Positions 9,871 through 56,697 of a stretch of 64,000 nucleotides of DNA are shown here, piece by piece. The notes under the pieces were generated by a model, which was not told the origin of the DNA, ran no database searches, and saw nothing but the letters and a program-made list of their open reading frames with translations. The position numbers were made by a program, and so were the translations under genes. The stretch is from Candidatus Poribacteria bacterium (GTDB lineage: Bacteria > Poribacteria > WGA-4E > WGA-3G), in the NCBI GenBank assembly GCA_963665235.2, contig CAXXLX010000001.1, positions 3,456,001-3,520,000 of the forward strand, written 5' to 3'. Numbering within the stretch: the first letter of the stretch is position 1; every line of letters starts with the position of its first letter.

Positions 9871-10275
9871 TCACTTCTTTAGATTTTCAAGATGTTGCCT
9901 AACTTTTTCTTTGTCTTTGTAACCTAATTCCAATGCTATTTCAAAAGCTTTCTGAGCACTAATACGGTCGTTCCAAAATAGTGCACTTACCCCAATATAG
10001 TAGACATCGGCAGCAGTCTCAGGAGGATTATTAATTACACTTTCGAATAGTTCAATAGCTGCTTCAACTGCTTCCTGCCCTCCGTGCGCGAAGTCGGACT
10101 CAACGAAATCAGCCTCATAGTTGGAGCAAAGCCGAACAGCATTGTCATAATCGATAATAGCTTTTTCAAGTTCACCTATTCCGTAATAGGCGTATCCCCT
10201 GTTTAGGTATACTGTGGCATCGTCTGGGTTAAGTCGAACGGCTTCGTCCAACTCACGAATGGTTTGGTCATCCAT
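9871..10275 (-). CDS. Short TPR protein with shared C-terminal domain (paralog 1)
   Basis: MDDQTIRELDEAVRLNP start, one TPR, then the shared tail; GGAG RBS. Confidence 0.85.
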   Translation of the reverse strand: MDDQTIRELDEAVRLNPDDATVYLNRGYAYYGIGELEKAIIDYDNAVRLCSNYEADFVESDFAHGGQEAVEAAIELFESVINNPPETAADVYYIGVSALFWNDRISAQKAFEIALELGYKDKEKVRQHLENLKK

Positions 10276-12071: not shown

Positions 12072-12640
12072 TTATACGTTTTCGAAGAGCGTTTTAGTGA
12101 AGTCTTCAATGTTAATTGAAAATGTCTCATTTTTAATTGTAGCATAAACTTCCAGTTTGTGCTCTTTATTGTAGCATAAACTTCCAGTTTGTGCTCTTTA
12201 TTGTAGCATAAACTTCCAGTTTGTGTCTTCCGTTCTCCGTTTGATTTCTAACAACCGGTAATGATAGAATAATTAATAAAAATGGTATTATTTGCCTTAA
12301 CAGCGTTAAGATACAGCTGTTCGAGCCGCTGCAAGTCGTCAATATCTTCAAGGACAGGTGTTAGGACACACCCTATATCTACATTGAATTTTGTGTTGAG
12401 GACTGTGATGAGGTTGCTGCGAGTAGCCGTTTTTGCGCCTTGCTGGTATCCCTCTTTCCTGAACTTTTCGCGTTGTCTTTGGAGAAAAGGTGATTCTTGC
12501 ATAAGTGCCTCCGGTATTTTTTCAAACAGACTTGGTTCATGTACGAGCCCTCCGAAGATAGAAAGTCCGTATAACAGATTTGCTTTTGTTGGTGCATCGG
12601 TAGATATAGCCGTTGTTGCCTCAATGCATCGCTCCACCCA
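12072..12640 (-). pseudogene. Diverged duplicate of the 3' part of rpn (RpnS-like cassette), interrupted by MITE-A1
   Basis: Begins right after the rpn stop with WVERCIEATT...; internal GGAGG-N5-ATG at 12502; original end IEDFTKTLFENV* lies at 12072-12111 beyond the MITE. Confidence 0.8.
12115..12287. mobile_element. MITE-A copy 1 with 3 GTAG hairpin units (left TIR deleted)
   Basis: Shares ATTGAAAATGTCTC left part and ...GAATAATTAATAAAAATGGTA right end with the other copies; removal at TTA restores the host frame. Confidence 0.8.
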
Positions 12641-13573: not shown

Positions 13574-13966
13574 TACCATTTCTAATTGAAAATGTCTCTT
13601 TCTTGTAGCATAAACTTCCAGTTTGTGCGGTTCTTGTAGCATAAACTTCCAGTTTGTGCGATTCTTGTAGCATAAACTTTTAGTTTGTGCGGTTCTTGTA
13701 GCATAAACTTCCAGTTTGTGCGGTTCTTGTAGCATAAACTTCCAGTTTGTGCGGTTCTTGTAGCATAAACTTCCAGTTTGTGCGGTTCTTGTAGCATAAA
13801 CTTCCAGTTGTGCGGTTCTTGTAGCATAAACTATTTGTTTGTGCGGTTCTTGTAGCATAAGCACTTCCAGTTTGGCGGTATCTTGTAACATAAACTTCCA
13901 GATCTGGGTCTTCCGTTTCATCTTTCTAAACAACCGGTAATGATAGAATAATTAATAAAAATGGTA
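13574..13966. mobile_element. MITE-A copy 2 with 10 tandem ~31-bp GTAG hairpin units
   Basis: TIRs TACCATTTCTAATT / AATAAAAATGGTA, TTA direct repeat on both sides; unit GTAGCATAAACTTCCAGTTTGTGC-GGTTCTT. Confidence 0.85.
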
Positions 13967-23990: not shown

Positions 23991-24055
23991 GGAGACCTAG
24001 CAGGCGAGGGGACCTCCCTCCTACGAAGCTACGTGCTAAATTTGTGTAAGTCCTG
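23991..24055. mobile_element. MITE-B right half with degenerate REP
   Basis: GCAGGCGAGGGGACCTCCCTCCTAC...AAATTTGTGTAAGTCCTG matches the right half of 36610-36724. Confidence 0.7.
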
Positions 24056-33413: not shown

Positions 33414-34472
33414 ATGTTTGTGCCAGTCAAAACGAAAGAGGGTGAACGATTGAGGTTTCCGATGCATGCTGCACGTGCAAGGAAACTTGTCAAACGCGGT
33501 GAAGCAACGCCTTATTGGAACAACGGTGTCTATTGTGTCCGTCTCAACAAAGAACCGAGTGACCGTGAGAAACAAGACATCGTAGTCGGTGTGGATCCTG
33601 GCTCTAAGAAAGAGGGTTTCACCGTAAAATCTAAGCGTCACACGTATCTGAACGTGCAGGTTTCCGATGCACATAGCAAAGTCGGCAAGAAGGTTGAGAA
33701 AAGACGTGAGTTGAGGCGTAGCCGCAGAGCGCGTAAATGTCCAAATCGGAAGAACCGCAAGAATAAAGGTGCTAACAAAAAGAAGATTCCCGCAGGCACG
33801 CGTGCCCGTTGGGATTGGAAACTGCGGATATTAGATTGGTTGTCTAACCTCTATCCTGTTACACACGTCTGTGTTGAGGATATTAAGGCGCGGACAAAAC
33901 AGTATCAAAAGCGGTGGAATCAGGCCTTTAGTCCTTTGGAAGTCGGAAAGCATTGGTTCTATTCAGAGGTAGAAAAGCGATGGGAACTCCTAACATTACA
34001 AGGGTTTGAAACCAAAGAGATACGCGAGCGTCTTGGTCTCAACAAGTCGTCAAAGAAGTTAGCTGAAACCTTTGAGGCACATTGCGTTGATAGCTGGTGC
34101 TTGGCATATCACACCATTGGCGGTTTAGAGATACCCGACAATACCGATATATTCTGTATCTCACCAATACCGATACGCAGGCGACAACTCCACAGACAAA
34201 ATCCGCAGAAAGGTGGCAATCGGCCGCGATATGGTGGCACCTTATTAGGCGATGGACTTGTTAAAAGCACATTGATAAAGCACGACAAATATGGACTCAC
34301 ACGTCCGAGGTCCCACCGAGGACATCCTATTGCGGGTGTTAATGCGAAAGGCCTATTCTCTGTCTATTCAAAAGATGGACAACGGTTAACAACGGGTGCG
34401 AAACGCACAGATTTTCAAGTGCTAACACGCTTGAACTTTCAATATAGGAGCGGTGTTTCCTCCCCCGCATAA
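33414..34472 (+). CDS. isrB: IsrB RNA-guided nickase (RRXRR/PLMP, split RuvC, no HNH)
   Basis: 352 aa; RFPMHAARARKL, VGVDPGSK, RRELRRSRRARK, CVEDI, AHCVDSW; no CxxC/HNH segment. Confidence 0.82.
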   Translation: MFVPVKTKEGERLRFPMHAARARKLVKRGEATPYWNNGVYCVRLNKEPSDREKQDIVVGVDPGSKKEGFTVKSKRHTYLNVQVSDAHSKVGKKVEKRRELRRSRRARKCPNRKNRKNKGANKKKIPAGTRARWDWKLRILDWLSNLYPVTHVCVEDIKARTKQYQKRWNQAFSPLEVGKHWFYSEVEKRWELLTLQGFETKEIRERLGLNKSSKKLAETFEAHCVDSWCLAYHTIGGLEIPDNTDIFCISPIPIRRRQLHRQNPQKGGNRPRYGGTLLGDGLVKSTLIKHDKYGLTRPRSHRGHPIAGVNAKGLFSVYSKDGQRLTTGAKRTDFQVLTRLNFQYRSGVSSPA

Positions 34473-34710: not shown

Positions 34711-34824
34711 TAGGACGGACGCGGCACGTTGATAAACCCTTACGATAATGGGATTTAGAGGGGACTTAGCGGGCGAGGGGACCTCGCCCCTACGGGGGTA
34801 TCGCCTAAATTTGCGTAAGTCCTG
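34711..34824. mobile_element. MITE-B copy with degenerate left TIR
   Basis: TAGGACGGACGCG...GCGGGCGAGGGGACCTCGCCCCTAC...TTGCGTAAGTCCTG. Confidence 0.75.
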
Positions 34825-34868
34825 AGCAGGAAAAAACAAGGGCAGCGTATTGAAAAGGACTTTTGCTG

Positions 34869-35555
34869 ATGTCTACATGTCTCACTGTTTTTGCTAAAAA
34901 TCCGATGCCGAACCGGGTTAAGACACGGCTCACGCCGATGCTTTCACCGGAACAGGCGGCGGCACTATACACTGCGTTCCTCACGGATTGGTGCGAAACA
35001 CTTAGGGAACTCCCCGATGTGACCCTGGTCATTGCATATACGCCACTAGATGCACAACCCGATTTACAAGCACTTATCGGAGAGTACGCTGTTTATATTC
35101 CGCAAATGGGGACGGACCTCGGCGCGAGGCTTGTCTCCGCAACGCAGTGGGCAGCTGAATACGGATATGAAAAGATTCTAATAGTCGGTTCCGATAGTCC
35201 AACACTCCCGCTTGCCTACATTTCTCAGGCGATTGCGGGGCTTGACGCTTGCGATGTTGTCATCGGGCCGAGTGTAGATGGGGGATATTATCTTATCGGT
35301 TTTTCTGCAGCAAACCTCACTCGGGTGGTGCCACACATCTTTGAGGATATTGCATGGAGTACGCCGCAGGTTTTTCAACAGACAATTGCGCGTATCGGTT
35401 CGATAGAGGCATCGTTCGGACTTCTACCGCCTTGGTATGACGTAGATACGCCTGAGGATTTGGTGTTTTTACAGGCGCACCTCTCGGCGATGCAGCTTGC
35501 AGGAGATACGGTACAAGCAGTTAGAACAGAAAAATTATTGACAGAATTGCTATAG
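34869..35555 (+). CDS. DUF2064/TIGR04282-like glycosyltransferase-fold protein
   Basis: FAKNP..RVKTRL, DLGARL, VGSDSPTL, GPSVDGGYYLIG, DVDTPEDL. Confidence 0.85.
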   Translation: MSTCLTVFAKNPMPNRVKTRLTPMLSPEQAAALYTAFLTDWCETLRELPDVTLVIAYTPLDAQPDLQALIGEYAVYIPQMGTDLGARLVSATQWAAEYGYEKILIVGSDSPTLPLAYISQAIAGLDACDVVIGPSVDGGYYLIGFSAANLTRVVPHIFEDIAWSTPQVFQQTIARIGSIEASFGLLPPWYDVDTPEDLVFLQAHLSAMQLAGDTVQAVRTEKLLTELL

Positions 35556-36575: not shown

Positions 36576-36604
36576 TTGACAAACATGGGATTCTTGTATA
36601 TAAT
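36576..36604 (+). promoter_or_regulatory. Consensus sigma70 promoter
   Basis: TTGACA-N17-TATAAT. Confidence 0.7.
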
Positions 36605-36609
36605 CTATT

Positions 36610-36724
36610 CAGGACTTACGCAGCACGTTGCTAAAGTCCATAGATAATGGGATTTAGAGGTTGACTTAGCGGGCTGGGGGACCCAGCCCCTACGAGCTTA
36701 TGTTCTAAATTTGCGTAAGTCCTG
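36610..36724. mobile_element. MITE-B, complete
   Basis: TIR CAGGACTTACGCA/TGCGTAAGTCCTG, 5-bp TSD CTATT, internal REP GGGCTGGG-GGA-CCCAGCCC-CTAC. Confidence 0.88.
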
Positions 36725-36780: not shown

Positions 36781-36809
36781 TTGACATTGTTAGTGATTTA
36801 GGTTATAAT
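36781..36809 (+). promoter_or_regulatory. Consensus sigma70 promoter
   Basis: TTGACA-N17-TATAAT. Confidence 0.7.
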
Positions 36810-37524: not shown

Positions 37525-38148
37525 ATGTTTTTTCAACCAACGCTAAATTCTCATTGGTTTTTCGTCCGAAAGACAAGCCTATATCTTATGATTGTTTTAG
37601 CGGTTGCTATGGTGTTTATCCCACTAGTATACCTACCCGAGGAAGGCGAAGCCGATCCTGTCTCACTAACACTTATAGGCCTTGGAATTACTGCTGCCGG
37701 AGTTCTCGTTACGTTATGGATATATAACGATGGTGTCTGTGACGAATGCAATGATGGTAGGGAATCAGATCATCTTGAGAAATGTGAGAACTGTGGTATA
37801 AAAGCTTATATATGTCCAGGATATCCCCATGGTCACAAGCAGCAGTGTGGATACTGCAAGGATTGGTATTTTTGTTGTGAATATGGCAATAATAATGAAG
37901 AACTCGCTGCTGAACATGGCCTGGAGCGTTGTACAGTACCAAGTTGTGGAAAACGTTATAGAAAATGTACTGAGAAGGATAAACACGGTCCCGGAAAATG
38001 CGATGATGGTGGTGATAATATTATCATGTGGGGTCCTGGTGATCCTGGTAGTGATGATGAGCACCGCTCCAACAACAGCAGCGGTAACAACAGCAGCGGT
38101 AACAACAGCAGCGGTAACAACAGCAGCGGTAACAACAGCAGCGGCTAA
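37525..38148 (+). CDS. Membrane-anchored Cys/His-rich repeat protein with (NNSSG)5 tail
   Basis: AAGGAG RBS; two hydrophobic segments; repeats H-x3/4-C-x2-C-x3-Y-x1/2-C. Confidence 0.7.
   Translation: MFFQPTLNSHWFFVRKTSLYLMIVLAVAMVFIPLVYLPEEGEADPVSLTLIGLGITAAGVLVTLWIYNDGVCDECNDGRESDHLEKCENCGIKAYICPGYPHGHKQQCGYCKDWYFCCEYGNNNEELAAEHGLERCTVPSCGKRYRKCTEKDKHGPGKCDDGGDNIIMWGPGDPGSDDEHRSNNSSGNNSSGNNSSGNNSSGNNSSG
38071..38145 (+). repeat. 15-bp coding tandem repeat x5 (AACAACAGCAGCGGT)
   Basis: Five units immediately before the TAA stop. Confidence 0.95.
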
Positions 38149-38226
38149 TGCTTAAGAACTCAACTTATTAGGGGGTACTCATCAGAATGCTCCCTCTGCT
38201 TCACTAAAAGCTCGGAGGTAAGAAGC

Positions 38227-38724
38227 ATGAAAAAGCAGCATAATCCTCTCGCAAGGTTTATCCTGGGGCTCGCAGCACTTTGGTGGCAACAAGCGACCCT
38301 TTTAGTCGAAAGAGTAAGAAATCTGCCCCAGAACAGAGAAGCGATGAGACAGGTCGTGAGTATCTGTATTGCGCTAGTAATTGTATTCGGTGGGGGTGCG
38401 TTTGCTATTAATCTATCGCGTTGTCCTAACTGTAAGGTTGGTTTAGGTGGACCGATACATCGCCATCTACACCAAGACATATGTAAGAACTGTGGTGAAT
38501 CCTATTGGGCATGTCCTTCTAAGCCTTTACCTCACTTAAAACGGTGTGAGTACTGCGGAGACTGGTACTATAATTGCCCCGATGGCTCATCACAAGAATC
38601 TGAGCATGGACCTACGATTTGCAAGTCACTTCATGAACGCTTGTCTCCCCCTGCTGGGCATCGTTTTAAGCCCGTTACAGGAGCACTCCCTCTACGCAGC
38701 AACAACAAGAAGGCAAACAGATAA
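38227..38724 (+). CDS. Cys/His-rich repeat protein, paralog of 37525-38148
   Basis: GGAGG RBS; hydrophobic helix; CPNC, HQDICKNCGESYWAC, HLKRCEYCGDWYYNC, EHG. Confidence 0.7.
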   Translation: MKKQHNPLARFILGLAALWWQQATLLVERVRNLPQNREAMRQVVSICIALVIVFGGGAFAINLSRCPNCKVGLGGPIHRHLHQDICKNCGESYWACPSKPLPHLKRCEYCGDWYYNCPDGSSQESEHGPTICKSLHERLSPPAGHRFKPVTGALPLRSNNKKANR

Positions 38725-38958
38725 CATATGAGAGCGAAATACTGGCAATATTGCCTAAGTGATGATATGATGAACATCAGTGTTTGAGAACCTCTGTGTG
38801 TAGTGTTTCGCGTTTCATTGATCGTTGGTGATATTATTATTTGGGCGATATCCTCATTTTTTTATCCCACACTCATGGGTCTAATTGGGCTGCGACCGGG
38901 ACTATAACTATCCCGATGATTCATCACAAGAATCACCTCTAGTAAGGAGTCTATAAAT

Positions 38959-39642
38959 ATGTTTACCACAAAAAGAATGATGTTCCTCTGCGGCTTCCTG
39001 GTATTAGTCGGTGGCGTTGCGTTTTATTTATTTCAACAGAATAAGCTATCCCCGGAACCCATCGCGAGTGACACTGTCCTCAAACTCGTACCCAAGCAGG
39101 AAATTCCTGACGAGACACCACGGGTTCAGGCGGGACTTACCGGGAAGCCCCCAGCTGAAGATCCGCATGCAGGACACAACCATCCACCACATGAACATAG
39201 TCACGACAAGCCTGAAGCGGAAATATCATCTGGTGAAACACCGGATGCCGAGGGGGCAGATACCGTAGCACCTACGAATGAAAACGCCGAAGTGCTTTCA
39301 GAGGAGGCGATTCAAAAATGGGTGACAGAGACTATGAAAGCACTAGATGATTTAAATACTCGATTTATGGAAAAATATCCAGAACTTCTTGAAATCTCAC
39401 AAATGACAAAGGAAGATTTTTTTGAAAAGTATCCAACTGTCGAATCCCGACAGGCACTTTTGGAATACGTACAAAGTGTTCAACCTGAAATGTTTGCAGA
39501 ACTTCGCGCGGTTTTTTCAAATCTACCCATTGAGATTGCAGACGATATTCTCTTGGAGGCAAAAGACCATTTTATCCAGATGTGGGGTCCCGAAACTGCT
39601 GACCAAGTAATGGCCAAACTCCGCGCAGAGTTAGGGTTGTAG
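38959..39642 (+). CDS. Membrane-anchored protein with His-rich linker and helical C-terminal domain
   Basis: AAGGAG RBS; N-terminal TM; DPHAGHNHPPHEHSHD. Confidence 0.75.
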   Translation: MFTTKRMMFLCGFLVLVGGVAFYLFQQNKLSPEPIASDTVLKLVPKQEIPDETPRVQAGLTGKPPAEDPHAGHNHPPHEHSHDKPEAEISSGETPDAEGADTVAPTNENAEVLSEEAIQKWVTETMKALDDLNTRFMEKYPELLEISQMTKEDFFEKYPTVESRQALLEYVQSVQPEMFAELRAVFSNLPIEIADDILLEAKDHFIQMWGPETADQVMAKLRAELGL

Positions 39643-39658
39643 GCATTCTTCTATACAT

Positions 39659-39787
39659 CAGGACTTACGCAGCGCGTTGATAAACCCTAATGATAGTGGG
39701 ATCTTAGCGGGCGGGGAGACCCCGCCCAAAGAGCGGGAAACTGTTTGCCCGAATACTGAGGTTTCTGATAAATTTGCGTAAGTCCTG
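39659..39787. mobile_element. MITE-B, complete
   Basis: Same TIRs, 5-bp TSD TACAT, internal hairpin GGGCGGGG-AGA-CCCCGCCC. Confidence 0.88.
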
Positions 39788-39806
39788 TACATGTTCAAAA
39801 AAGGAA

Positions 39807-42298
39807 GTGGTATCATTACCCCTTATTCATCTTGTGAAAACTGTAAAAAGTCACCCACTTTTCAAAGACATCAGCATTGGTGTCCTCCTTTTGGGTATCC
39901 TATTCCTTGCCTTCTGGATACGCGTCCAAGGTGTAAAACGTTTTCCTGATGGACAATTTTCCGAAAACGATGCCTACCTCTTCCATTGGCAAGCAAAAGA
40001 GATTGCCGAGCAGGGATATCTCTCGGCACGCGACAGGCACCGCTGGCTGCCTATAGGCAGAGACAATCAGCAGATGCTGTCTCTCTATCCCTACGTTATT
40101 ATGTATACTTATAAAGCGATAGGGTGGATGTCTCCAAAGATCACGCTTTATCGCATCCAACTCTACATGCCTACCATCTGTTTTACCTTGGGGCTTGGCG
40201 TGCTGTTTCTTTTTCTTGCGCATAGCTACGGAATAGTCTTTGCAACTATCAGCACGGTGCTTTTAGCAACACTCCCGGGAAGTATAGAGCGTAGTGCCGC
40301 TGGCTTTGGCGACAGAGACGCATGGTGTTGGCTCTTCGGGGTGCTTGCTGTCACCAGCTATCTCTGGAAAGAGCAAATCCCATTAAACCCCCTGTCAAGG
40401 GCGGTAAAAATTGGCGCAGACACTTTGCAACCGCCGTCGCCGGATTCACCGTTTTTCTCGGCGGGCTCTCTTGGGAAGGTTTTGGATTTTTCGTTCTCAT
40501 CATAGTCGCCGCTGAACTTTGGAAATTCTGTACCACAGACATAGAACATTCCTTAAAGGAGTACGCCCTCTGGATACTCATGTTCGTTCCTGGCCTCTAT
40601 ATCCTTAGTCCTGTCTATCGGGGCGGGTACGGTTTTTCAACGCATGTTGCCGCACTCATGCTACTCCCTCCGCTTACGGTGTTCGTGCTGCGTGGAATGC
40701 GACATCTACTTCTTAAGTACGTTGAAAACCTCCGCCCCCATGCTCGAAAACTTGCCTGGGGATTAACGCTGCTTACCATCATAGCAGGGCTCAGCTATCT
40801 TTTCCTCCAATCTAGCATATTTGAGACAACTGCCTTTGCTTTGCGGGAGAGCCGACTCATGAAAGATGTTGGTGAGTTAGTTGACCCGCATTTCGGATAT
40901 TGGCCGGCACGATACGGTGCGGTCTTTATTTTAGGCGGTATCGGTTTGATAGGAGCGAGTCTCCATTTATGGCGATGGGAAGGATTGCCTTTAACCCTCA
41001 CCCTCGTTCTCTTTACTACAACAACCTTCTTCCGATGGCCTATCAGTAAATGGATAGGTGCTAACGTGTGTGGGACGCTTTTTTTCACTGCGCTCGTCAT
41101 TATACCTATAGCAATTGGTATTGCGTGTCTACGGCAAGAAACTGCTAAAAATGAACTTTTGACGCTCGCTATGCTTGCATGGTTTTTCTTATGGGTAGGT
41201 CTCGCGCGGGGAGGAAAACGCTATGACTTCTTCATCGGCATCCCCCTTGCCTACGGCACTGCGTGGTTGCTCTGGCTTTCCCCCGCACATCTCATACAAA
41301 AACTCAAGGACGCGAAATTTCTTTACCCCCATGTCAAAGCAAGACGTATCGCTGCGACTACTGTCATTGTTGTGTTAATACCTATTCTCTTTTGGAACCC
41401 CCTTGGTGGGCATGCAACTCGCTCTATTCACGCTGCTGCCGAGATGCAGCAACCCTCACCAGGACAAGAAGGCAGCCTTGCCCAGACATTAACGTGGATG
41501 AAAGACACACTCCCCAAAAACGCTGTTGTCGCCGCAAACTGGGGATATGGCACGCAGCTTAACGTCCTCGGAGGTGTTAAAACCATTACAGATTCGGACC
41601 ATTTTCTACCGCATTGGATACATCTCTATTACCGACACGTCTTCTGTGCACAGTCGGAACAAGAAGCTCTCTCTTTTCTCAAAACGCATGGTGCCACACA
41701 CCTCATGTTAACCAAATGGGGCGTGACATCTCAATCCAAAAACTTTTCATTCATTGGCAGCACTGCAAGCAATGATAGGCGTTTTAGACTCTATGAACTT
41801 ACCCGACGAGAGGCACCCGTTGGTGCACCCTACCAAATACGCCCTAAACAGCACGGCACTCCCGTAGCATTCGCTGACATGGTTTCAACGACACCGGTCC
41901 GTAGCCCGGGTGCCCATGCACGCATCGTGCCTGGGACACAACAAAAGCTGGGTGTCACTGCTCATCTGAAAACACATCGGAATATATTCCACGAGATTTC
42001 CATAAACACCGACAGCCCATCTCAACAAGCAGTAGATATTGGAAATGGCGGTGTGGTATTCTACTTTGATTCCAGGGCAATTTTCGACAAAGCCTATTAC
42101 GTCCCACCCATCGGCTGGAACAGTCTTGCGGTCAAACTGTTTCTGAGAGGTAAACACAGAAATGCCTTCATTCCTGTTTACCCTGAAAACGGAGATGCTG
42201 CTGCGGAGGTCAAAGTCTGGGAAATTCACTATCCCTCCTACATCAAAAAGAATTCAAAGTACTTGAGAACAGAACCAAAGCGAACAGATGAAAAATAG
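39807..42298 (+). CDS. STT3/AglB/PglB-like oligosaccharyltransferase, split by a 1-nt frameshift at C5 40388-40392
   Basis: FSENDAY, RSAAGFGDRD, many TMs, KRY, WMKDTLPKNAVVAANWGYG (WWDYG equivalent); one extra C joins the two track ORFs; exact start uncertain. Confidence 0.78.
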
Positions 42299-44700: not shown

Positions 44701-47700
44701 ATGAAAAATAACGATGTTGACCTGATAGAACGCGTCCTCTCAGGCGATGAAACGGCGTTTACCGAATTGGTGAAAAAATATCAGAAACCTGTGCATGCCC
44801 TCGCTTGGCGAAAAATAGGCGATTTTCACATCGCTGAAGAGATTACACAGGATACTTTTCTTAAAGCGTATCAACGTCTCCACACCCTCAAAGACCCGCA
44901 TCGGTTTGCGGGATGGTTATATGTCATCGCAACCCGAAGATGCCTTGCATGGTTCCGAAAAGAACGGATACAGGTCCAACCGTTAGAGAATATGGACAAT
45001 GTCCTGATACAGAGAGATGCTTATTCACAGCATGTTGCCACGGAACGCGCGAAAACTGCGAATCAGGTGCAACAGGATGTCGTCAAAAACCTACTCATGG
45101 ACCTGAAGGAGAGCGACCGAACTATCATCACCCTGCACTACTTCGGGGAGATGACGTGTGAAGAGATGAGTGAGTTCTTAGGGGTTTCTGTGAATACGGT
45201 TAAGAGTCGGCTCCGGCGTGCGCGGAACCGCTTGAAGAAGGAGGAAACGGTGATTCGCGAAGCACTTGACACCTTCAAAATCTCACCGAACCTTACCGAT
45301 ACCATTATACAAGAGGTTGCGCGACTCAAACCTGGGGCACCTGCTAGCAGCAAACCGCTGGTGCCGTGGATGCTAGCTGCCACTAGTGCTGTTTTGATTG
45401 TGTTAGTGCTCGGTATAGGCAGCCAACATCTATCGCGCTTCCAGCGACCTTATAGTCTAGACGCACAGTCTGAAATGAAGGTGGACATTATTGATGCACC
45501 TATTGTTCACGATTTTGAGGCGGAGCCGGATGCTCGACATCAGCCGGGCAAACGTTCCGATACCCCCGGCAGAGACGATGGTAATGGTGAAAAATCGAAT
45601 CAGGTTTTCGTCTCGGAGGGGGATTATACTCGGTGGAATCTACCGGAAGGCGCGAAACGGCGACTCGGCAAAGGGGTGGTGAATGATATGCAGCTATCAC
45701 CCGATGGCAAAAAGTTGGCGATTGCAAGCTCCACCGGTATCTGGTTATACGATGTTAGCACAGGTAAAGAGTCCGCGCTTCGGACAAAAAGCAGCGATTT
45801 TGCTAGATTAGTGGTCTTCTCACCGGATAGCAAAGTGCTTGTGAGTGCCGGGAGTGGCAACAAAATCCAGAGTTGGGACGTTGACAGTGGAAAACCTCTA
45901 CTAACCCTCACTGTTCCTAGGGAGCCGCTCTTCTCTCTGAAATTCTTAGCCGATGGTAAAACCCTCATGGGTCTAAATTGGCCAGACAGCGTCGATATAT
46001 ATCGGGAAGCCAATATTTGGTTTTGGGATATTACCACTGGTGCACATCTTAAAAGTTTCAATCCGGAGGCCCCCATCGTCAAAATCGCGGGGGGAATTTT
46101 GACGGGTGGACTAGGGGTGTTTGTTGACAAAATCGGGGTCGTTACTTATGCTATCGGAAATAAGAACGGCACAATTAGCATACAAAATGGGCAAACCGAT
46201 AGGGAGATTATTACGCTTGTCCCGCAGACAGATGAAACCGATTTTTTTACACTACGTCCAGCCGAAAATGTTTTTAATGTAAGAAAACCGAGAGTCCACG
46301 GTGATGATAAAACGTCTTCTCTAACATATCGTAAGGATAATCGGACACCGTTCCCTATCCAATATCAATTGGGGCCCCAAAGCCGGACAAAACATACTCT
46401 AGAGGCGCAGCCGATGCGATGGATAACAGCGCTAGATTTCGCACCAGATGGCAAAACTCTCGTGAACAGATGCGACTACATGATTGCTCAAAACGGAGGT
46501 TTGCTCAAAATCGAAGGCCCGATTGAAATTTGGGATGTTGACACCGGGGAACAACTCGCAGCACTGGACCTGGAACGTGTGTCGGATGTAAAGTGCTCTA
46601 GCGATGGGAAAACTCTCGCTATCATAGGTTATGACGGATGTGTGCTATGGGATATCCCGACCCGACAGAAAATTGGCACGTTTCCGCAGAGTATAGACGT
46701 AAGGTTTTCTGGGGATGGCAAAACTGTTTGCATTCTAAGCCAGGCTCGCTATATGATGTGGAATATCGCAGCGCGAAAAGAGCTTGCAGTGCTCAACTAC
46801 TTTGAACCTTTTCCTGAACGTTTTGTGTTATCCCATGATGGCGCAATTCTTACCACACTGGATGCAATTGGCACAGTGAATGTGTGGGAGACAGAAACGG
46901 GTAAACAGCTGCGCATTCTTACCACAGGTTGGACAAAAGAGTTCACGGCGTTGGCGTTCGCACCCGATGGCAAAACCCTCGCGAGTGGAGATAATGCCGG
47001 TAATATTCAGCTGTGGAGGACAGATACTCACACCAAACGGATGACGATTAAAGCTGGAAATAATCGCATCGACGGATTAGCTTTCGCCCCGGATAACAGG
47101 ACGCTAACCACTATGAGCAGAAATGTGCTCAAAGTATGGGATGCCGCTGTTGGGAAACAACGTGAGGTTTTCACTATACCAAACGCTACAAGTGGCGGTG
47201 GGTTTGCTACATTTATTGATGGGACAAGACTGCGGGGCAAGAGCCTCGCGCTCACGTCTAACAGTGAAAGGCTTGCTATTACGGCTATTAGAAATCCTAG
47301 AAACAATTTTATTGAGGTGTGGGATATCGCAACCGGCAAACCGCCACAACGTCTGATGAGGGTTAGAGCTGCTACACCTGGCCTACAGACCATAGCACTT
47401 ACCTCTGATGGAAATATGCTTGCGCACTATGAGGGGAATACCGTATCCTTGTGGAATGCAAACACAGGTACGCAGTTTACAAAACTTGAATTGTCAAATG
47501 ACGGTCATGCAATAGGATTCTCACCGGATGGAAAAACATTGGGAGTCGGATTAGACCGGGGAATCCAATTGTATGACGTTAAAACCCACCGACACATTGG
47601 GACGCTTGCGGCACATGAACATACCGTCTGCAAATTGGCATTTTCTCCGGATGGCACAATTCTCGCGACTGGTGATACGGGTGGCAAAATTCACTTATGG

Positions 47701-47871
47701 GACATTCCTACCCGCCGCCACCTAACTATCTATGATGGACATGGGAGTTTTATCAGTGCTTTAGCGTTTACACCTGATAGTAAAATGCTTGCAAGCATAA
47801 GCGGCGGCAGCTATTGTTACTACAATATACAGGATGGAACTATCCTCCTCTGGAACGTCCCATCTAAGTAA
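44701..47871 (+). CDS. ECF sigma factor-TM-WD40 propeller fusion (ECF-1)
   Basis: Sigma2 (AEEITQDTF, FAGWLYVIA), sigma4 (TVKSRLRRAR), TM after KPLVPW, many FSPDGKTLA WD40 repeats. Confidence 0.9.
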   Translation: MKNNDVDLIERVLSGDETAFTELVKKYQKPVHALAWRKIGDFHIAEEITQDTFLKAYQRLHTLKDPHRFAGWLYVIATRRCLAWFRKERIQVQPLENMDNVLIQRDAYSQHVATERAKTANQVQQDVVKNLLMDLKESDRTIITLHYFGEMTCEEMSEFLGVSVNTVKSRLRRARNRLKKEETVIREALDTFKISPNLTDTIIQEVARLKPGAPASSKPLVPWMLAATSAVLIVLVLGIGSQHLSRFQRPYSLDAQSEMKVDIIDAPIVHDFEAEPDARHQPGKRSDTPGRDDGNGEKSNQVFVSEGDYTRWNLPEGAKRRLGKGVVNDMQLSPDGKKLAIASSTGIWLYDVSTGKESALRTKSSDFARLVVFSPDSKVLVSAGSGNKIQSWDVDSGKPLLTLTVPREPLFSLKFLADGKTLMGLNWPDSVDIYREANIWFWDITTGAHLKSFNPEAPIVKIAGGILTGGLGVFVDKIGVVTYAIGNKNGTISIQNGQTDREIITLVPQTDETDFFTLRPAENVFNVRKPRVHGDDKTSSLTYRKDNRTPFPIQYQLGPQSRTKHTLEAQPMRWITALDFAPDGKTLVNRCDYMIAQNGGLLKIEGPIEIWDVDTGEQLAALDLERVSDVKCSSDGKTLAIIGYDGCVLWDIPTRQKIGTFPQSIDVRFSGDGKTVCILSQARYMMWNIAARKELAVLNYFEPFPERFVLSHDGAILTTLDAIGTVNVWETETGKQLRILTTGWTKEFTALAFAPDGKTLASGDNAGNIQLWRTDTHTKRMTIKAGNNRIDGLAFAPDNRTLTTMSRNVLKVWDAAVGKQREVFTIPNATSGGGFATFIDGTRLRGKSLALTSNSERLAITAIRNPRNNFIEVWDIATGKPPQRLMRVRAATPGLQTIALTSDGNMLAHYEGNTVSLWNANTGTQFTKLELSNDGHAIGFSPDGKTLGVGLDRGIQLYDVKTHRHIGTLAAHEHTVCKLAFSPDGTILATGDTGGKIHLWDIPTRRHLTIYDGHGSFISALAFTPDSKMLASISGGSYCYYNIQDGTILLWNVPSK

Positions 47872-48034: not shown

Positions 48035-48066
48035 TATGTGTTGAAATAAATTATTGGAGGCACTTG

Positions 48067-51000
48067 ATGAAAAACAGTGATGTTGAACTGATAGAACGCG
48101 TCCTCACAGGCGATGAAGCGGCGTTTACCGCATTGGTAAAAAGATATCAGAAACCTGTGCACACGCTCGCTTGGCGGAAGGTAGGCGATTTTCATATCGC
48201 TGAAGAGATTACGCAGGATACTTTTCTCAAGGCGTATCAAAAACTACATACCTTGAAAGACCCGCATCGGTTTGCGGGATGGTTGTATGTCATCGCAACC
48301 CGCAGATGCCTCGCCTGGCAACGCAAGAAACGGATACAGACACAACCGTTGGCAGATGCCGAGACGACTCTGATTAAGCGAGATGCTTATTCTCAACATG
48401 TTGTGCAAGAACGCGCTAATATTGCGGCGCAGACACAACGTGAAACGGTCGAGAAGTTGCTCGCGAAGTTGAAAGAGAGCGAACGCACGGTGATGACGCT
48501 CCATTACCTCGGCGAAATGACTTGTGAGGAAATTAGCCGATTTTTAGGCGTATCGACAAGTACGATAAAAAGTCGACTTCGGCGTGCGCGACAACGTTTG
48601 CAAAAGGAGGAGACAATGATTAGAGAGGCACTTGAACATTTTCAGATTTCACCGACCCTGACCGATACGATAATGTGTGAGGTTGCACGCCTCAAACCGG
48701 GGGCACCTTCCGGGAGCAAGCCTTTGATGCCGTGGGCGATAACTGCTGCAAGTGCTGTTTTGCTTGTGTTTATGCTTGGCATCGGGAGTCAAAACTTACT
48801 AAGATTTCAGACCCCTTACAGTCTAGATGTGCAGGCTGATATGACAGTAGATATTATCGAGGCACCTGTTGTGCTGAACCTTGAAGTGAAACCGGATGTT
48901 CGGCGTCAGTTTGGCAATCTGAATGCGCTGGGTGAAAGCGATAATAGTGGTCAGAAACCGGATGACGTTTTATTGGCTGCTGCGCAGGCGGAAGGGGAGG
49001 ACGTTTCTGTTCCCAAACAGCAGTGGATTCAGTCAAAGCCTACTGCGGGAACTATGGTAGAAGGTTTGCTTGCAACTTCAGAGGGTGGAGCTTTACGCTC
49101 TTGCTGATAGGACATATCTACAAATTGGAAGACTGATAGTGCAAAAGAGTGGCAACACGTTTTTGATACTACTTTATTGGATACTGACTATGAAGATTGG
49201 CTGATTGGCAGTCCTATGGAAAAAGTGGGACAATACACTCTATATTGATTCCATCTAAGACCTCTTCGCTTCAAAAGATGATGGCAAAACGTGGAACTTA
49301 GTTCACTCAATGGCCGAGAGATCTTTGGTATCGCTTTATGAATTGGTGCTAACAAAACAAGCTTTTTATATCATCTTTTATATAGGTAGCGATATTTTTC
49401 GTTCTGAAGATTCTGGCAAGACATGGGAGGTCATAAATAATCCGATAGGATAGAATTTCCCAGCGAACCTAATCATATTGTCAACGGCCCAGAGACACAG
49501 TATTTGCTTTAGCAAGGACAAGATATGCCCTCTACCGCTTTACCGATGACAGTTGGCAACGTTTGGAATTTCCGGTGTCTGTTGGAAAAATCCGTTCAGT
49601 TGCAGCGGCTAAAGAGAAACTATATGTTGTGGCAGAGGCGAGTGATGATGTGTTAGATTCCGGTAAAGTATCTCAAGGGCAGGAACGTGGTTGGTGGATA
49701 TTTCGCTCGACTGACCTTGGCGATTCGTGGGATGATATAACACCAACAAACGCCTGGCCCGTAAAGGGGTTGCCGCCCCGTCTCCAACTTCTTGCAGTTG
49801 GTGATACACTTCTTGCGATGGAACATGGCATGGTTAGCTCTCCTGATAGTGGAAACACGTGGTTTACATCACAATTATCAAGGGGCCTACTCCTTTAATC
49901 CATCCTGATATAGGTCTTTAAGGCAGCAGCAGTAAACGAAGGTGTTTTTTATGTTAGTGGGAGAAACGGACTGCATCGTTCCACTGATAGTGGTAAATCA
50001 TGGAATCAGATTAATATCACTACGGATAAGAGCAAAGTAGAGACTTTAATCGCGTATAAAAGGCATGATATACCTCCAACGCTCTATGCAAGATATGAAG
50101 GACGGCTCGCAAAAACTTCCGATGAAGGCAAGTCTTGGGATGCTGTTCAAATAGAAATTCCGATGACGGACCCCGATAGAGAAAAACCACCAGATATTAC
50201 GCATATCATCAAATCTGATGGTGTTCTCTACGCAAAAGGGGGTGGCTCTTTTCACAGAAGCAAAACACACGTATATATCGCGTATCTACAGATGGTAATA
50301 TGCTTGTGCCGATTCAAGGCATGCCCATCTTCGACTCACTGGAATCATATATTAAGTCGGACGAAATATTGGATAACCGATTTAACGTGTTAGATAAATC
50401 GGTGCTTGAACAGATGCAAGAGGAGATTCCTGGCGCAACCGACCTCTTCAAACAGCTGATACAAACAGACCAGGAAAATCAGTTTAAACTTTTTAGAACA
50501 GCCCAGCGTGGTCCGTTTGCTATCAGTGGTAACACATTCTATATGGAATACAACTTATAACTATTCCGATGGACTCCCGGAGATACCGAATGGTCAGACA
50601 CCGGTATGGAGGAAACCGGTGAATTGACTCTGGACGTGGCAAGGAAAGAGCCCAAACTATCAGTGTCAGGAAACACCGTCTACATCGGCAAACGGGATGG
50701 CACCCTCCATCAATCTTTTGATAGTGGGCATACTTGGAAAGATATTCCTTTGGATTTTATGTTTGCTAAGCCTGTTGAGATTTTCAAAGCACTTGTGTTT
50801 GCGGGGCCCAAGGTATATGTAGCAACGGACATAGGTGTCGCCGCGTCAGATGATGGTAGACATTGGTATCCTCTAACCGATGCAGCAGGGACAAATCTTA
50901 CCATGGAGCACTTGGCAGTTGATGGGAACAACGGTTTATGGTGTTACCAAAGGATACAGGTATCTATCGCTTGGAAAGCGGGACTTGGGAACAGGTTGTT

Positions 51001-51205: not shown

Positions 51206-51255
51206 TATAGGTTGAAATAAAATTATTGGGATTATCCCTTTTCTGGAGGCACTTG

Positions 51256-52839
51256 ATGAAAAACAGTGATGTTCAACTGATAGAACGCGTCCTCTCAGGC
51301 GATGAAACGGCGTTTACCGAATTGGTGGAAAAATATCAGAAACCGGTGCACACGCTCGCCTGGCGGAAAATAGGTGATTTTCATATCGCTGAAGAGATTA
51401 CGCAGGATACTTTTCTCAAGGTGTATCAAAAACTACATACCTTGAAAGACCCGCACCGGTTTGCGGGCTGGCTGTATGTCATCGCAACCCGCAGATGCCT
51501 CGCCTGGCAACGCAGAAAACGGATACAGACACAACCGTTGGCAGATGCCGAGACAACCCCGATTAAGCGAGATGCTTATTCCCAACATATTGTGGAACAA
51601 CGCGCGGAGACAACTGCCGAGGTGCAGCGCGAAGTTGTGAAAAAGCTGCTGGTAAAACTCCCGGAGAGTGAGCGCACAGTCCTTATGCTCCGTTACTTCA
51701 GCGAGATGTCTAGTGCAGAAATCGGGGAGTTCTTAGGCGTATCCGCAAATACGATTAGAAGCCGGCTCCGCAGGGCACAGCAACGTTTACAAAAAGAGGA
51801 GACAATGATTAGAGAGGCACTCGACCATTTCCAAATTTCACCGACCCTCACCGATACCATAATGCGGGAGGTTGCACGCCTGAAACCGGGGGCACCTTCT
51901 GGGAGTAAACCCCTTGTGCCGTGGGCGATTGCTGCTGCAAGTGCTATTTTGCTTGTGTTGATGCTTGGGATAGACAACCAATATTTAGCGCGTTTTCAGC
52001 AACCCTATAGTTTAGATGCGCAATCCGAAAGAGTAATTGAACTTGTTGACGCGCCTATTGCCCAAAATGTTAAGGCAAAACCGGACGTACGAAACCAACC
52101 GGGGAAACTTTCTGATACAGATGATAGAAATAATGGTGATGGAGAAAAAGCGAATCAGGTTTTAGGTGATGAAGGGGGCTATACTCGGTGGAATTTACCG
52201 GTAGATGCGAAACGGAGGCTAGGGAAAGGGGTATTGAACAATATGCAATTATCACCTGATGGCACACGTCTGGCTGTAGCAAGTTCAATTGGGATATGGC
52301 TCTATGATGCAGACAGTGGAAAAGAACTGGCCCTGTTAACAGGGCATACGGCCGAGGTCTTGAGCGTGGCGTTCAGTCCAGATGGAAAAACACTCGCAAG
52401 TGGGAGTTTCGATTCTACTATTCGTTTATGGGATGTGCAGACAGGAGAACTCCTCAAAACCCTTATAGAACATACAAATGTTGTCTTTAGCCTGGCTTTC
52501 AACCCGGATGGCAAAACACTTGCAAGTGGGAGTCATGATGGTCTCATCCACCTGTCGGATGTGCAGACAGGTCGGATCCTTAAAACCACAGAACATACAG
52601 ATTGGGTTATGAGTGTGGCATTCAGTCCAGATGGAAAGACACTCGCAAGTGGGAGTAAGGATAGCACCATTCAACTATGGGATACAGAGACAAATAGAGT
52701 CCAACAAATTTCCGTGGGTCATACGAGCTGGGTTACAAGCGTGGCGTTCAGTCCAGATGGAAAAACGCTCGTAAGCGGGAGTAGAGATGGCACGCTACTG
52801 TTATGGGAAATTACGCTTGACGCAACCCAACTTAAGTAA
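51256..52839 (+). CDS. ECF sigma factor-TM-WD40 fusion (ECF-3, short)
   Basis: GGAGG RBS; sigma2/sigma4, TM, GH...VAFSPDGKTLASGS...LWD repeats. Confidence 0.9.
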   Translation: MKNSDVQLIERVLSGDETAFTELVEKYQKPVHTLAWRKIGDFHIAEEITQDTFLKVYQKLHTLKDPHRFAGWLYVIATRRCLAWQRRKRIQTQPLADAETTPIKRDAYSQHIVEQRAETTAEVQREVVKKLLVKLPESERTVLMLRYFSEMSSAEIGEFLGVSANTIRSRLRRAQQRLQKEETMIREALDHFQISPTLTDTIMREVARLKPGAPSGSKPLVPWAIAAASAILLVLMLGIDNQYLARFQQPYSLDAQSERVIELVDAPIAQNVKAKPDVRNQPGKLSDTDDRNNGDGEKANQVLGDEGGYTRWNLPVDAKRRLGKGVLNNMQLSPDGTRLAVASSIGIWLYDADSGKELALLTGHTAEVLSVAFSPDGKTLASGSFDSTIRLWDVQTGELLKTLIEHTNVVFSLAFNPDGKTLASGSHDGLIHLSDVQTGRILKTTEHTDWVMSVAFSPDGKTLASGSKDSTIQLWDTETNRVQQISVGHTSWVTSVAFSPDGKTLVSGSRDGTLLLWEITLDATQLK

Positions 52840-52868: not shown

Positions 52869-53625
52869 TACCATTTCTAATTGAAAATGTCTCTTGATTG
52901 TAGCATAAACTTCCAGTTTGTGCGCTTTATCGTAGCATAAACTTCCAGTTTGTGCGCTTTATCGTAGCATAAACTTCCAGTTTGTGCTTTATCGTAGCAT
53001 AAACTTCCAGTTTGTGCGCTTTATCGTAGCATAAACTTCCAGTTTGTGCTTTATTGTAGCATAAACTTCCAGTTTGTGCTTTATTGTAGCATAAACTTCC
53101 AGTTTGTGCGCTTTATCGTAGCATAAACTTTTAGTTTGTGCGCTTTATCGTAGCATAAACTTTTAGTTTGTGCGCTTTATCGTAGCATAAACTTTTAGTT
53201 TGTGCGCTTTATCGTAGCATAAACTTTTAGTTTGTGCGCTTTATCGTAGCATAAACTTTTAGTTTGTGCGCTTTATCGTAGCATAAACTTTTAGTTTGTG
53301 CGCTTTATCGTAGCATAAACTTTTAGTTTGTGCGCTTTATCGTAGCATAAACTTTTAGTTTGTGCGCTTTATCGTAGCATAAACTTCCAGTTATCGTGCT
53401 TTTAGTTTGTGCGCTTTATCGTAGCATAAACTTTTAGTTTGTGCGCTTTATTAGCATAAACTTTTAGTTTGTGCTTTATTGTAGCATAAACTTCCAGTTT
53501 GTGCTTTATTGTAGCATAAACTTCCAGTTTGTGCTTTATTGTAGCATAAACTTCCAGTTTGGGTCCTCCGTTCTCCGTTTCATTTCTAACAACCGGTAAT
53601 GATAGAATAATTAATAAAAATGGTA
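52869..53625. mobile_element. MITE-A copy 3 with 21 tandem 30-32-bp GTAG hairpin units
   Basis: Same TIRs and unique arms as copy 2; flanks TAA (left) and TTA (right). Confidence 0.85.
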
Positions 53626-55837: not shown

Positions 55838-56185
55838 GCGGTTTTGCCTGAAAAGCGGGCTGCTCCCCCAAATACTGTGCCTATTTTCTACAAGTTGTCC
55901 TTGTGTGAGAAACAGTGAGAAAAATGGGAAATGCTTTGGAAATCTGGCATCAGTCTCACAGATAGTGTCCAAACTATAGTATAAAATTAGCAGATTTTGT
56001 CGGGCAGTGTTAATGCTGCTCTTCCTACCTCTATGCTCTTTTTCCTCCAAAAATTTCTGTTTTTTGCAGAATTAACCCAAGTTGCTACTTATAAGTTTTT
56101 AGACCTGGAAACACCGTCTTTAATGAAAATATGCTGATAATTAGGTAATATTTGTAGCGTCCACTTTTAGTTTGCACACAAATAT

Positions 56186-56678
56186 GCACAATCTGGAAGA
56201 TTATGCTACTATGTGCACAATCTGGAAGATTATGCTACTATGTGCACAATCCGGAAGATTATGCTACTATGTGCACAATCCGGAAGATTATGCTACTATG
56301 TGCACAATCCGGAAGATTATGCTACTATGTGCACAATCTGGAAGATTATGCTACTATGTGCACAATCCGGAAGATTATGCTACTATGTGCACAATCCGGA
56401 AGATTATGCTACTATGTGCACAATCCGGAAGATTATGCTACTATGTGCACAATCCGGAAGATTATGCTACTATGTGCACAATCCGGAAGATTATGCTACT
56501 ATGTGCACAATCTGGAAGATTATGCTACTATGTGCACAATCCGGAAGATTATGCTACTATGTGCACAATCTGGAAGATTATGCTACTATGTGCACAATCC
56601 GGAAGATTATGCTACTATGTGCACAATCCGGAAGATTATGCTACTATGTGCACAATCCGGAAGATTATGCTACTATGT
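56186..56678 (-). repeat. 17 x 29-bp tandem GTAG hairpin array
   Basis: Unit GCACAATCyGGAAGATTATGCTACTATGT, no spacers. Confidence 0.95.
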
Positions 56679-56697
56679 GGCAACTTAGGTAGAATTA

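Follow-up and report, generated by a model that had tools for sequence, protein, structure and literature searches.

An STT3-like transferase with an altered sequon-binding motif and its small membrane protein neighbors in Candidatus Poribacteria

Introduction

Among bacteria, STT3-type enzymes that carry out N-linked protein glycosylation have, to our knowledge, been described from few lineages. The bacterial systems of this type that have been described rely on a general enzyme and a fixed sequon. Here, we describe a locus of a Candidatus Poribacteria bacterium (assembly GCA_963665235.2, contig CAXXLX010000001.1, positions 3,456,001-3,520,000 of the forward strand), in which the gene for a divergent STT3-like transferase is preceded by genes for three small membrane proteins, termed P1, P2 and P3. 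The entire stretch of 64,000 nucleotides is referred to as the window. All coordinates are positions within the window, and the region under study extends from 37525 to 42298. Judged by titles and the beginnings of abstracts, our literature searches found nothing addressing Poribacteria STT3-like enzymes or their N-glycosylation.

PglB of the Campylobacter type resembles the Poribacteria enzyme in its GT-C fold with a C-terminal periplasmic domain (PDB entries 6gxc, 5ogl and 3rce, E-values between 7e-11 and 5e-10), in the alignment of the enzyme motif region to WWDYG of 3aag (E 0.57, not significant), and in conserved Asp, DxD and Arg motifs, which are putative counterparts of PglB motifs (PMC7226087). 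However, sequence identity is only about 12-13%, the match to the curated PglB family (NF050801, ProtGlycPglB) amounts to 10.4 bits versus a cut-off of 1300, and NWGYG stands in the place of WWDYG. The Poribacteria enzyme also has no pgl-type glycan assembly genes nearby, and there are many paralogs per genome, each with small neighbors of its own.

Archaeal AglB provides the best structural match (A. fulgidus AglB, 7e9s, E 4.3e-12), and the archaeosortase-associated STT3 family TIGR04154 the only NCBIfam match to P0001, an intact relative of the window enzyme (E 2.5e-18); several paralogs in one genome are a further common trait. The family 2 glycosyltransferase (GT2) encoded next to orthologs of the Poribacteria enzyme resembles AglJ and dolichyl-phosphate hexose transferase. 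In contrast to the archaeal enzymes, the Poribacteria enzyme comes from a bacterial host, has a changed WWD motif, falls outside the TIGR04154 subfamily (65.9 bits for P0001 versus a cut-off of 450), and is linked to small tail proteins and not to S-layer or PGF-CTERM systems.

Pairs of a GT2 and a GT-C enzyme (ArnC/ArnT, GtrB/GtrC, Dpm1/PMT, and DPY19 with Dol-P-Man) also offer a parallel, since the GT-C gene of the orthologs overlaps with a gene for a GT2 that resembles polyprenyl-phosphate sugar synthases, and since DPY19 is the next structural neighbor after the oligosaccharyltransferases (OSTs) (E 3e-7). The similarity has its limits, because ArnT and AftA are only matched at about 1e-3, no PMT or ArnT Pfam match to the window enzyme pieces was found at E ≤ 1, and the GT2 is absent from the window. 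The HMW1C/HMW1 and N-glycosyltransferase (NGT)-adhesin pairs offer a precedent for the idea of an enzyme whose gene adjoins that of its own client, a protein with many glycosylated Asn residues. However, HMW1C/NGT are soluble cytoplasmic GT41 enzymes that use nucleotide sugars, whereas the Poribacteria enzyme is a membrane GT-C protein of the OST family.

In contrast to the bacterial systems described so far, the locus belongs to a sponge-symbiont phylum with many STT3-like paralogs per genome, none of which, among those with a readable motif, has the sequon-reading WWD. Each paralog lies in a conserved cassette of its own, and upstream of several there are genes for small proteins that end in Asn-rich repeats.

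Results

Gene layout of the locus

Four co-oriented genes for P1, P2, P3 and the STT3-like enzyme, each with a GGAG-type ribosome-binding site before its start, occupy the + strand of the region. A preliminary description of this DNA had reported the gene cluster, the repeat at the end of P1 and the enzyme motif, and every one of these elements was found where it had been placed. The features of the region are:

37525-38148, + strand: P1, 207 aa, open reading frame (ORF) with ribosome-binding site and ATG start; two transmembrane (TM) segments, Cys/His domain (C72 to C136), (NNSSG)5 at the C-terminus
38071-38144, + strand: 15-bp tandem repeat encoding the NNSSG units (Tandem Repeats Finder)
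38227-38724, + strand: P2, 165 aa, P1 paralog; one clear TM segment, Cys/His domain as in P1, basic tail lacking the repeat
38903-38935, + strand: probable P2-like remnant in the P2-P3 spacer (tblastn)
38959-39642, + strand: P3, 227 aa, with N-terminal anchor, His-rich stretch (39166-39204) and helical C-terminal domain
39659-39787, no strand: inverted-repeat element of 129 bp with terminal inverted repeats, in the P3-STT3 spacer
39807-40388, + strand: 5' part of the STT3-like gene in the first frame, with NDAY (39966-39977) and GDRDAW (40308-40325); Pfam PF02516
40388-40392, + strand: run of five C (C5) and frame change, one base fewer than in the intact relative P0001
40394-42298, + strand: 3' part of the STT3-like gene in the second frame, with GELVDP (40871-40888), GGKRYDF (41210-41230), NWGYG (41537-41551) and a C-terminal periplasmic-type domain

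The ORF calls for the STT3-like gene, 39774/39807-40505 and 40322-42298, are in two frames. A gene-free stretch of 1.2 kb upstream of P1 contains two promoter-like sites on the + strand that match the sigma-70 consensus perfectly, at 12 of 12 positions (36576-36604 and 36781-36809). A scan of the region for sigma-70 promoter-like sites returned 15, versus 9.6 +/- 3.0 expected.

The enzyme groups with oligosaccharyltransferases

The N-terminal piece of the window enzyme matched the Pfam STT3 family (PF02516, CAZy GT66) with an E-value of 3.4e-10 and 40.5 bits, well above the curated cut-off of 24.5. The intact 830-aa relative P0001, which is 98% identical to the window enzyme, scored 43.4 bits, and 10 of 21 aligned relatives matched at E ≤ 0.001. 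The TIGR04154 score of the window piece was 33.4 bits. As the scores lie far under the cut-offs of both NF050801 and TIGR04154, the enzyme is not a member of either curated family.

Single-sequence phmmer searches of the PDB sequences with both enzyme pieces gave no significant match (best E 0.21; STT3, 2lgz, E 0.88). A profile of the 21 relatives matched the C-terminal domain of yeast STT3 (2lgz, E 0.0022), and the non-significant match to C. jejuni PglB (3aag) mentioned above was obtained with the same profile. The profile stretch aanWeYG falls on AAWWDYG of the yeast and TWWDYG of the C. jejuni protein. The alignment to 2lgz stops before the DK/MxxI motif, which contributes to recognition of the +2 residue, and no reliable counterpart of this motif was identified.

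In a Foldseek search with the AlphaFold2 (AF2) model of P0001 (predicted local distance difference test score, pLDDT, 58.5), the top 19 PDB matches were without exception AglB, STT3 or PglB structures (E 4e-12 to 1e-8, TM-score 0.31-0.50). DPY19 came next, and AftA and ArnT followed at a distance. The model has a multi-TM GT-C fold with a C-terminal periplasmic domain and is closest to solved OSTs. Pfam, profile and Foldseek results agree in placing the enzyme with protein OSTs and not with GT-C transferases of the ArnT/PMT type or others that do not act on proteins, which bears out the view of the preliminary description that it is a divergent STT3.

In a protein search, 8000 candidates were scored, and 879 of them were relatives at E ≤ 0.001. 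The Asp of xDA[YF] was present in 114 of the best 120, as was GDRDAW, and the Glu in xELxDP and the Arg in GxKRxD were also conserved in this group. The first two motifs lie inside the Pfam-aligned region. In PglB, D56, D154/D156 and R375 represent the catalytic Asp of the first loop, the DxD/E metal motif and the Arg (PMC7226087). The Asp, DxD and Arg motifs of the Poribacteria enzyme are of this kind, and their residues are putative equivalents.

The situation is different for the WWD motif, which binds the +2 Ser/Thr of the sequon (PMC7226087). At the WWDYG position, the window enzyme reads NWGYG, as already stated in the preliminary description, and in its relatives the position has the form [NHIKSD]-W-x-x-G, with D, G, S, N, E, P or T in third place. 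Neither WWDYG nor any other WW form was found in the 62 paralog loci with a readable motif (of 79 loci, see below), and WW was also absent from the 12 commonest variants among the best 120 relatives. Since the motif that reads the +2 Ser/Thr is altered, the classical N-x-S/T rule cannot be assumed for these enzymes. Thus, the enzyme has the Pfam match and the fold of STT3/AglB/PglB, and it lacks both WWDYG and scores that reach the curated PglB and archaeal cut-offs.

A paralog radiation with conserved cassettes

Species-representative genomes were scanned with family-specific peptide patterns. Altogether 106 relatives were found, of which 80 were kept, in 79 loci. Seventy-seven of these loci were titled Poribacteria, and the remaining 2 "uncultured bacterium". 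A single metagenome-assembled genome (VXZK01) contributed up to 8 loci, and several loci had more than one copy. Names were available for 8 of the best 120 relatives from the protein search, 7 of them "hypothetical protein, Candidatus Poribacteria" and 1 a JGI "Stt3" label. The STT3-like enzymes form a large paralog radiation in Candidatus Poribacteria; the restriction to this phylum is partly by construction, because the scan used family-specific patterns.

In tblastn searches of the 79 loci, matches to P1 and P2 were confined to L023 and L038. With an enzyme identity of 67-68%, these two are the closest orthologous loci. In both, the gene order is P1-P2-P3-STT3-GT2, and the GT2 start overlaps the STT3 stop codon. 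The conserved order indicates a module that is maintained among orthologs and includes the GT2, a likely lipid-sugar synthase. The linkage claimed in the preliminary description therefore holds as far as gene order in L023 and L038 is concerned, but P1 and P2 are confined to these orthologs. The best matches of the ortholog GT2 were to AglJ (E 5.5e-42) and to dolichyl-phosphate hexose transferase (E 9e-31), and neither reached the cut-off. A GT2 was present in L023, L038, L005 and L058, and beside 13 of the 79 paralog loci overall.

P3 has one N-terminal hydrophobic segment in addition to its His-rich stretch. By tblastn, it was found in L023, L038, L005 and, weakly, L016. In L023, L038 and L005, the STT3-like gene directly follows the P3 ortholog, after a gap of 4 bp in the first two, and the His-rich motif is conserved in the orthologs. 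In L038, the P3 ortholog is split into overlapping frames (9308-9673 and 9598-9990) by an apparent frameshift, in a cassette of the same type. A looser P3-like cluster in 17 of the 79 loci was held together by transitive BLAST links, and most of its members were 13-17% identical to P3. Because of the transitive links and low identity, only the proteins in L023, L005, L038 and L016 were taken as real P3 relatives. The ESM Atlas returned three unnamed clusters at 0.81 for P3, which serve as a lead only. A complex prediction for P0001 and residues 95-227 of P3 (score 0.00, mark 0.32) gave no verdict and was used neither way.

In the window itself, no AglJ/DPM1-like GT2 adjoins the transferase. 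Searches of the entire 64 kb by tblastn (E ≤ 1e-3) gave no match to the types of GT2, methyltransferase and CDP-alcohol transferase that neighbor the paralogs. They also identified none of the upstream or downstream neighbors of L038 and no further STT3 copy, so that the window contains one STT3-like gene only. The preliminary description had stated that no glycan synthesis or flippase genes are adjacent. This is correct for glycan synthesis genes of the above kinds in the window (flippases were not searched for), but not for the orthologs with their AglJ-like GT2.

Clustering of the neighbors over the 79 loci distinguished about ten recurrent cassette types. Small anchored neighbor types were the loose P3-like cluster (17 loci), a "KKxCxCC" protein (14), a small Cys protein ending in SGxCxSGxCxS (9), and a secreted Cys-rich protein (9). 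Apart from the GT2, enzyme-type neighbors were a methyltransferase (15 loci) and a CDP-alcohol transferase (8); a T2SS-C-like protein occurred in 13 loci. WD40 proteins (22 loci), MacB-type permeases (10), extracytoplasmic function (ECF) sigma factors (9), sulfatases (6), Wzy_C (3) and PMT_2 proteins (3) were also found. Each cassette type has its own variant of the WWD-equivalent motif, and much of this pattern reflects shared descent.

P1 and P2 belong to a small Cys/His family

P1 and P2 are paralogs (BLASTP, 30% identity across 125 aa, E 1e-12) with 13 Cys and 7 His in P1, and 10 Cys and 8 His in P2. In 27 aligned sequences of the family, C72, C75, H83, C87, C90, C97, H104, C108, C111, C118 and H131 are invariant, and C136 is present in at least 90%. 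These twelve ligand-type positions, nine Cys and three His, would fit three four-ligand metal sites of the zinc type. A Pfam zinc-ribbon match to the domain was weak (E 0.41).

The AF2 model of P1 has long helices at residues 10-35 and 45-69, a compact core with short beta-hairpins, and a disordered tail (pLDDT about 86-88 at residues 60-110). Foldseek of this model against the PDB found nothing below E 0.69; the weak top matches included many zinc fingers and ribbons, none of them significant. The ESM Atlas had no usable match for the Cys/His domain of P1. Out of 1.84 billion, a profile of the domain recovered 25 representatives at E ≤ 0.001, and a single one of these falls outside the range of 82-209 aa. 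The family is small.

The sidedness of the domain and of the P1 tail depends on the family member considered. All 10 P1-type sequences have two hydrophobic segments, with 0-2 Lys/Arg in the N-terminal tail, 0-1 in the acidic loop, and 0-2 after the second segment. Together with the positive-inside rule, this pattern predicts that both termini are inside, and hence that the Cys/His domain and tail are cytoplasmic. In 12 of 17 P2-type and other relatives, there is a single segment with a strongly basic N-terminal flank (3-6 Lys/Arg before, 1-3 after), which predicts that the same domain is outside. The preliminary description had made its proposal depend on an extracytoplasmic tail. The two-TM topology of P1-type proteins speaks against this location and that of most single-segment relatives in favor of it, so that we put the chance that the P1 tail lies outside at about even or slightly less.

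The remnant at 38903-38935 encodes 11 residues, 9 of which are identical to residues 115-125 of P2 (tblastn E 0.72, not significant alone). It is probably what is left of another P1/P2-type copy. P0122 is a variant of P1 that shares the first approximately 26 residues and the NNSSG tail with the window protein, but is only 38% identical in between. It may either have a mosaic or fast-evolving central domain or be a further paralog.

Asn-rich tails recur upstream of the paralogs

The repeat in P1 has a period of 15 and 4.9 copies with 100% matches (score 148). It translates to (NNSSG)5 and contains all ten N-x-S positions of P1. The 86% identical P1 relative P0121 has about 4 NNSSG-type units with Ser substitutions, P0122 has four NNSSG units followed by NGSS, and the P1 relatives in L038 and L023 as well as P0124 have short N/S/G tails. 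The tail is thus variable in length, as had been suggested. In remoter P1 orthologs, N/S/G tails of 10-13 residues or S/G/C tails were found.

Other tail repeats beside the paralogs were (GGND)n, (GGNDDD)n and (EEND)n with NDS at the end, (x-x-G-N-N-D-D)n, and (ND)n. The majority of them do not conform to N-x-S/T. Tail unit type and number vary between genomes. In the following small signal-anchored proteins, encoded just upstream of other paralogs, the tails are (GGND)9, (GGNDDD)6, (EEND)5 and (x-x-GNNDD)4, and a Cys-Pro-Pro junction often stands before the repeat:

L035 8894-9430, L047 1132-1755, L041 691-1272, L046 8803-9309 and L030 3262-3744: small signal-anchored tail proteins
L019 8645-9121; L044 879-1514; L054 9419-9877: further small signal-anchored tail proteins

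The association of such tails with the enzyme genes was assessed for small ORFs (80-300 aa). With a strict definition (at least 68% N/S/G/D and at least 3 Asn in the last 25 residues), Asn-rich tails were present in 7 of 270 small co-oriented ORFs at most 3 kb from a paralog, compared to none of the 293 small ORFs at distances above 4 kb (Fisher p 0.0056). A looser G/S/N/D/C/E criterion gave 14 of 270 near and 1 of 293 distant ORFs (p 2.9e-4). In an independent scan, every ORF with a minimum length of 60 aa in any of the six frames was searched for tandem peptide repeats that contain Asn (period 4-7, 3 copies or more). Seven ORFs had such repeats. All of them are on the strand of the enzyme and lie 380-984 bp before its start, and the distance between repeat and C-terminus is 1-31 residues. 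There were none elsewhere in the 1.15 Mb of paralog flanks.

Canonical sequons were not enriched upstream of the paralogs (0.57 N-x-S/T per 100 aa versus 0.44 in background ORFs). The suggestion that STT3 paralogs repeatedly neighbor sequon-rich tails therefore needs to be modified: Asn-rich repeat tails recur, but they mostly do not conform to N-x-S/T.

Other tail carriers mostly have a single N-terminal hydrophobic segment, which predicts that their tails are outside. In a FastTree phylogeny of 54 full-length enzymes (enzymes shorter than 560 aa or without the DRDA motif, from at least 25 loci, were left out), tail-bearing cassettes were found in three clades, two of them neighbors, and most had Gly at the position of the WWD Asp.

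State of the cassette in the window

The tblastn alignment of P0001 to the window is in two frames, with residues 1-201 at 39807-40409 and residues 192-830 at 40379-42295. Comparison of the sequences located a single missing base in or next to the C5 run at 40388-40392, and thus traced the frameshift at 40388 noted in the preliminary description. As this run is a homopolymer, the break could just as well stem from faulty assembly.

The P3-STT3 spacer is 164 bp long in the window, compared to 4 bp in the orthologs. The 129-bp element within it is bounded by inverted repeats of 13 bp that match perfectly, and it contains a GC hairpin. Another copy, of 115 bp, is located at 36610-36724, and the hairpin changes between the two copies are compensatory. 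The 13-mer has 6 matches in the window, versus 0.05 expected, including single ends at 34812-34824 and 24043-24055. By its structure, the 115-129 bp element looks like a miniature inverted-repeat transposable element (MITE) or a repetitive extragenic palindromic (REP)-type repeat. The frameshift, the missing GT2, the element in the spacer and the P2-like fragment together suggest some decay, or at least remodelling, and the window cassette looks impaired.

Proposed function and alternative explanations

The most likely explanation in our view, at about even odds, is that the region is a dedicated cassette. Its OST-family enzyme would have a retuned acceptor pocket and would act on the small membrane proteins encoded beside it, or together with them; in the orthologs, it would be fed by the GT2. 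The region is one cassette of the STT3/AglB/PglB-family (GT-C) radiation in Candidatus Poribacteria. Its enzyme, of approximately 830 aa when intact, has kept the acidic and basic motifs, has NWGYG in place of the sequon-binding WWDYG, and is predicted to work like an OST. P1, P2 and P3 would be co-transcribed with it as dedicated clients, either acceptors or partner subunits. In the orthologs, the AglJ-like GT2 encoded immediately downstream would load a hexose onto polyprenyl phosphate, for subsequent transfer by the STT3-like enzyme at the outer side of the membrane. The Asn-rich tail of P1 would be recognized by the retuned pocket and not by the classical N-x-S/T rule. This tail is the best single candidate for an acceptor, although a doubtful one. 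The comparisons above show that the enzyme belongs to the family by sequence and fold, that its motifs have changed, that the operon is conserved in orthologs, and that Asn-rich tails are associated in position with the paralogs, whereas donor, acceptor and tail sidedness are what we infer.

A more far-reaching version, which we think improbable, is that each enzyme clade is paired with its own small exported protein, and that the Asn-rich C-terminal repeats (NNSSG, GNNDD, GGND, EEND) are dedicated polyvalent acceptors. The change of WWD to N-W-G or other variants would then have retuned the enzymes away from N-x-S/T, and a minimal GT2 and GT-C pair would produce a multiply N-glycosylated "glyco-tail" of variable length. 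If the proposal of a dedicated cassette is true, the paralogs would represent natural experiments on the evolution of OST acceptor specificity and possibly a source of enzymes with new acceptor rules. The proposal would also provide a testable idea of how uncultured sponge symbionts build their surface.

Several results weigh against this proposal. The enzyme model has low confidence (pLDDT 58.5, pTM 0.50), the window enzyme gene is frameshifted and the window has no GT2, and P1/P2 homologs are limited to orthologous loci (2 of 79). A cytoplasmic tail, as predicted for P1, would be beyond the reach of the GT-C active site, and the three putative zinc sites of P1 would be of a kind more usual in the cytoplasm. 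The density of N-x-S/T near the paralogs is not raised. Variation of the +2 residue of the tail repeats (S, D, G, E or N) argues against a single acceptor rule, and the tail counts overstate independence, because the cassettes in the three clades were inherited by descent.

Alternatively, the enzyme may act elsewhere, on bulk periplasmic proteins or on an envelope glycan or lipid, and P1-P3 may be co-regulated envelope or metal-handling proteins, with the P1 tail a slippage-prone, low-complexity end that has no role in glycosylation. The great diversity of paralog contexts, from MacB-type permeases, WD40 proteins and sulfatases to Wzy_C, PMT_2, CDP-alcohol transferases and methyltransferases in the numbers given above, would be as expected. 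So would the predicted cytoplasmic tail, the metal sites suggested by the Cys/His pattern, the His-rich motif kept in P3 orthologs, and the absence and variability among paralogs of the WWD Asp, to which PMC7226087 assigns binding of the +2 Ser/Thr. The placement of the enzyme with protein OSTs instead of ArnT/Emb-type enzymes, the close spacing of only 4 bp between P3 and the enzyme gene in orthologs, and the strong tendency of small proteins with repeat tails to be encoded near the paralogs argue in the opposite direction, and we regard this explanation as possible but on balance doubtful. It is unlikely, in our view, that the cassette in this genome is a decaying remnant with a transferase pseudogene, so that the module no longer works, whatever its ancestral role. 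The one-base frameshift relative to P0001, the lack from the entire window of the AglJ-like GT2 of L023, L038, L005 and L058, the 129-bp element that widens the P3-STT3 spacer, and the P2-like fragment in the P2-P3 spacer would all fit a remnant. However, the break is in a homopolymer, a common spot for sequencing or assembly errors, both enzyme halves are otherwise open and 93-97.5% identical to P0001, and P1-P3 are intact with good ribosome-binding sites.

The literal model of the preliminary description, in which a classical sequon-directed OST N-glycosylates the ten N-x-S sites of P1 as a host-facing surface tag, would account for the perfect N-x-S array of the tail, for the persistence of N/S/G tails in P1 orthologs, and for the OST-like nature of the enzyme. 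Yet the +2-reading motif is not conserved (WWDYG in 0 of 62 loci), most of the other paralog-linked tails are not N-x-S/T, and the P1 tail is predicted to be cytoplasmic. No result here bears on host exposure, and the suggested host-facing surface decoration thus finds no support. We consider this model very unlikely.

Other features of the window

Downstream of the region, an ECF sigma factor fused to WD40 repeats (44701-47871, 1056 aa), a second ECF-type sigma factor (48064-49107) and a WD40 protein (51226-52839) are encoded. WD40 and ECF sigma proteins also neighbor STT3-like paralogs, as listed above. The ECF-sigma and short-chain dehydrogenase/reductase (SDR) matches of window neighbors beside paralogs are generic. 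Four further window neighbors, namely the TIGR04282, YjbQ, GH32 and RRXRR proteins, were not found beside paralogs in any of the 79 loci.

The TIGR04282 protein ("arsenosugar biosynthesis glycosyltransferase", 188 bits versus a cut-off of 134) is encoded at 34863-35555 on the + strand, 2 kb upstream of P1. The RRXRR gene (33414-34472, + strand) encodes a 352-aa protein that matches Pfam RRXRR with an E-value of 3e-26 and the NCBIfam entry "RNA-guided endonuclease IscB" with 3e-20, the latter below cut-off and over the N-terminal 165 residues only. This gene is possibly of the IscB/IsrB type. At gathering thresholds, Rfam gave 0 matches in the whole window.

Head-to-tail arrays with a unit of 29-32 bp are located at 12136-12229 (3 copies), 13600-13901 (9.7 copies), 52893-53561 (about 16 copies) and 56185-56679 (17.1 copies). 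As they contain no spacers, they are not CRISPR-like. In the last array, a related unit in reverse orientation is apparent by eye.

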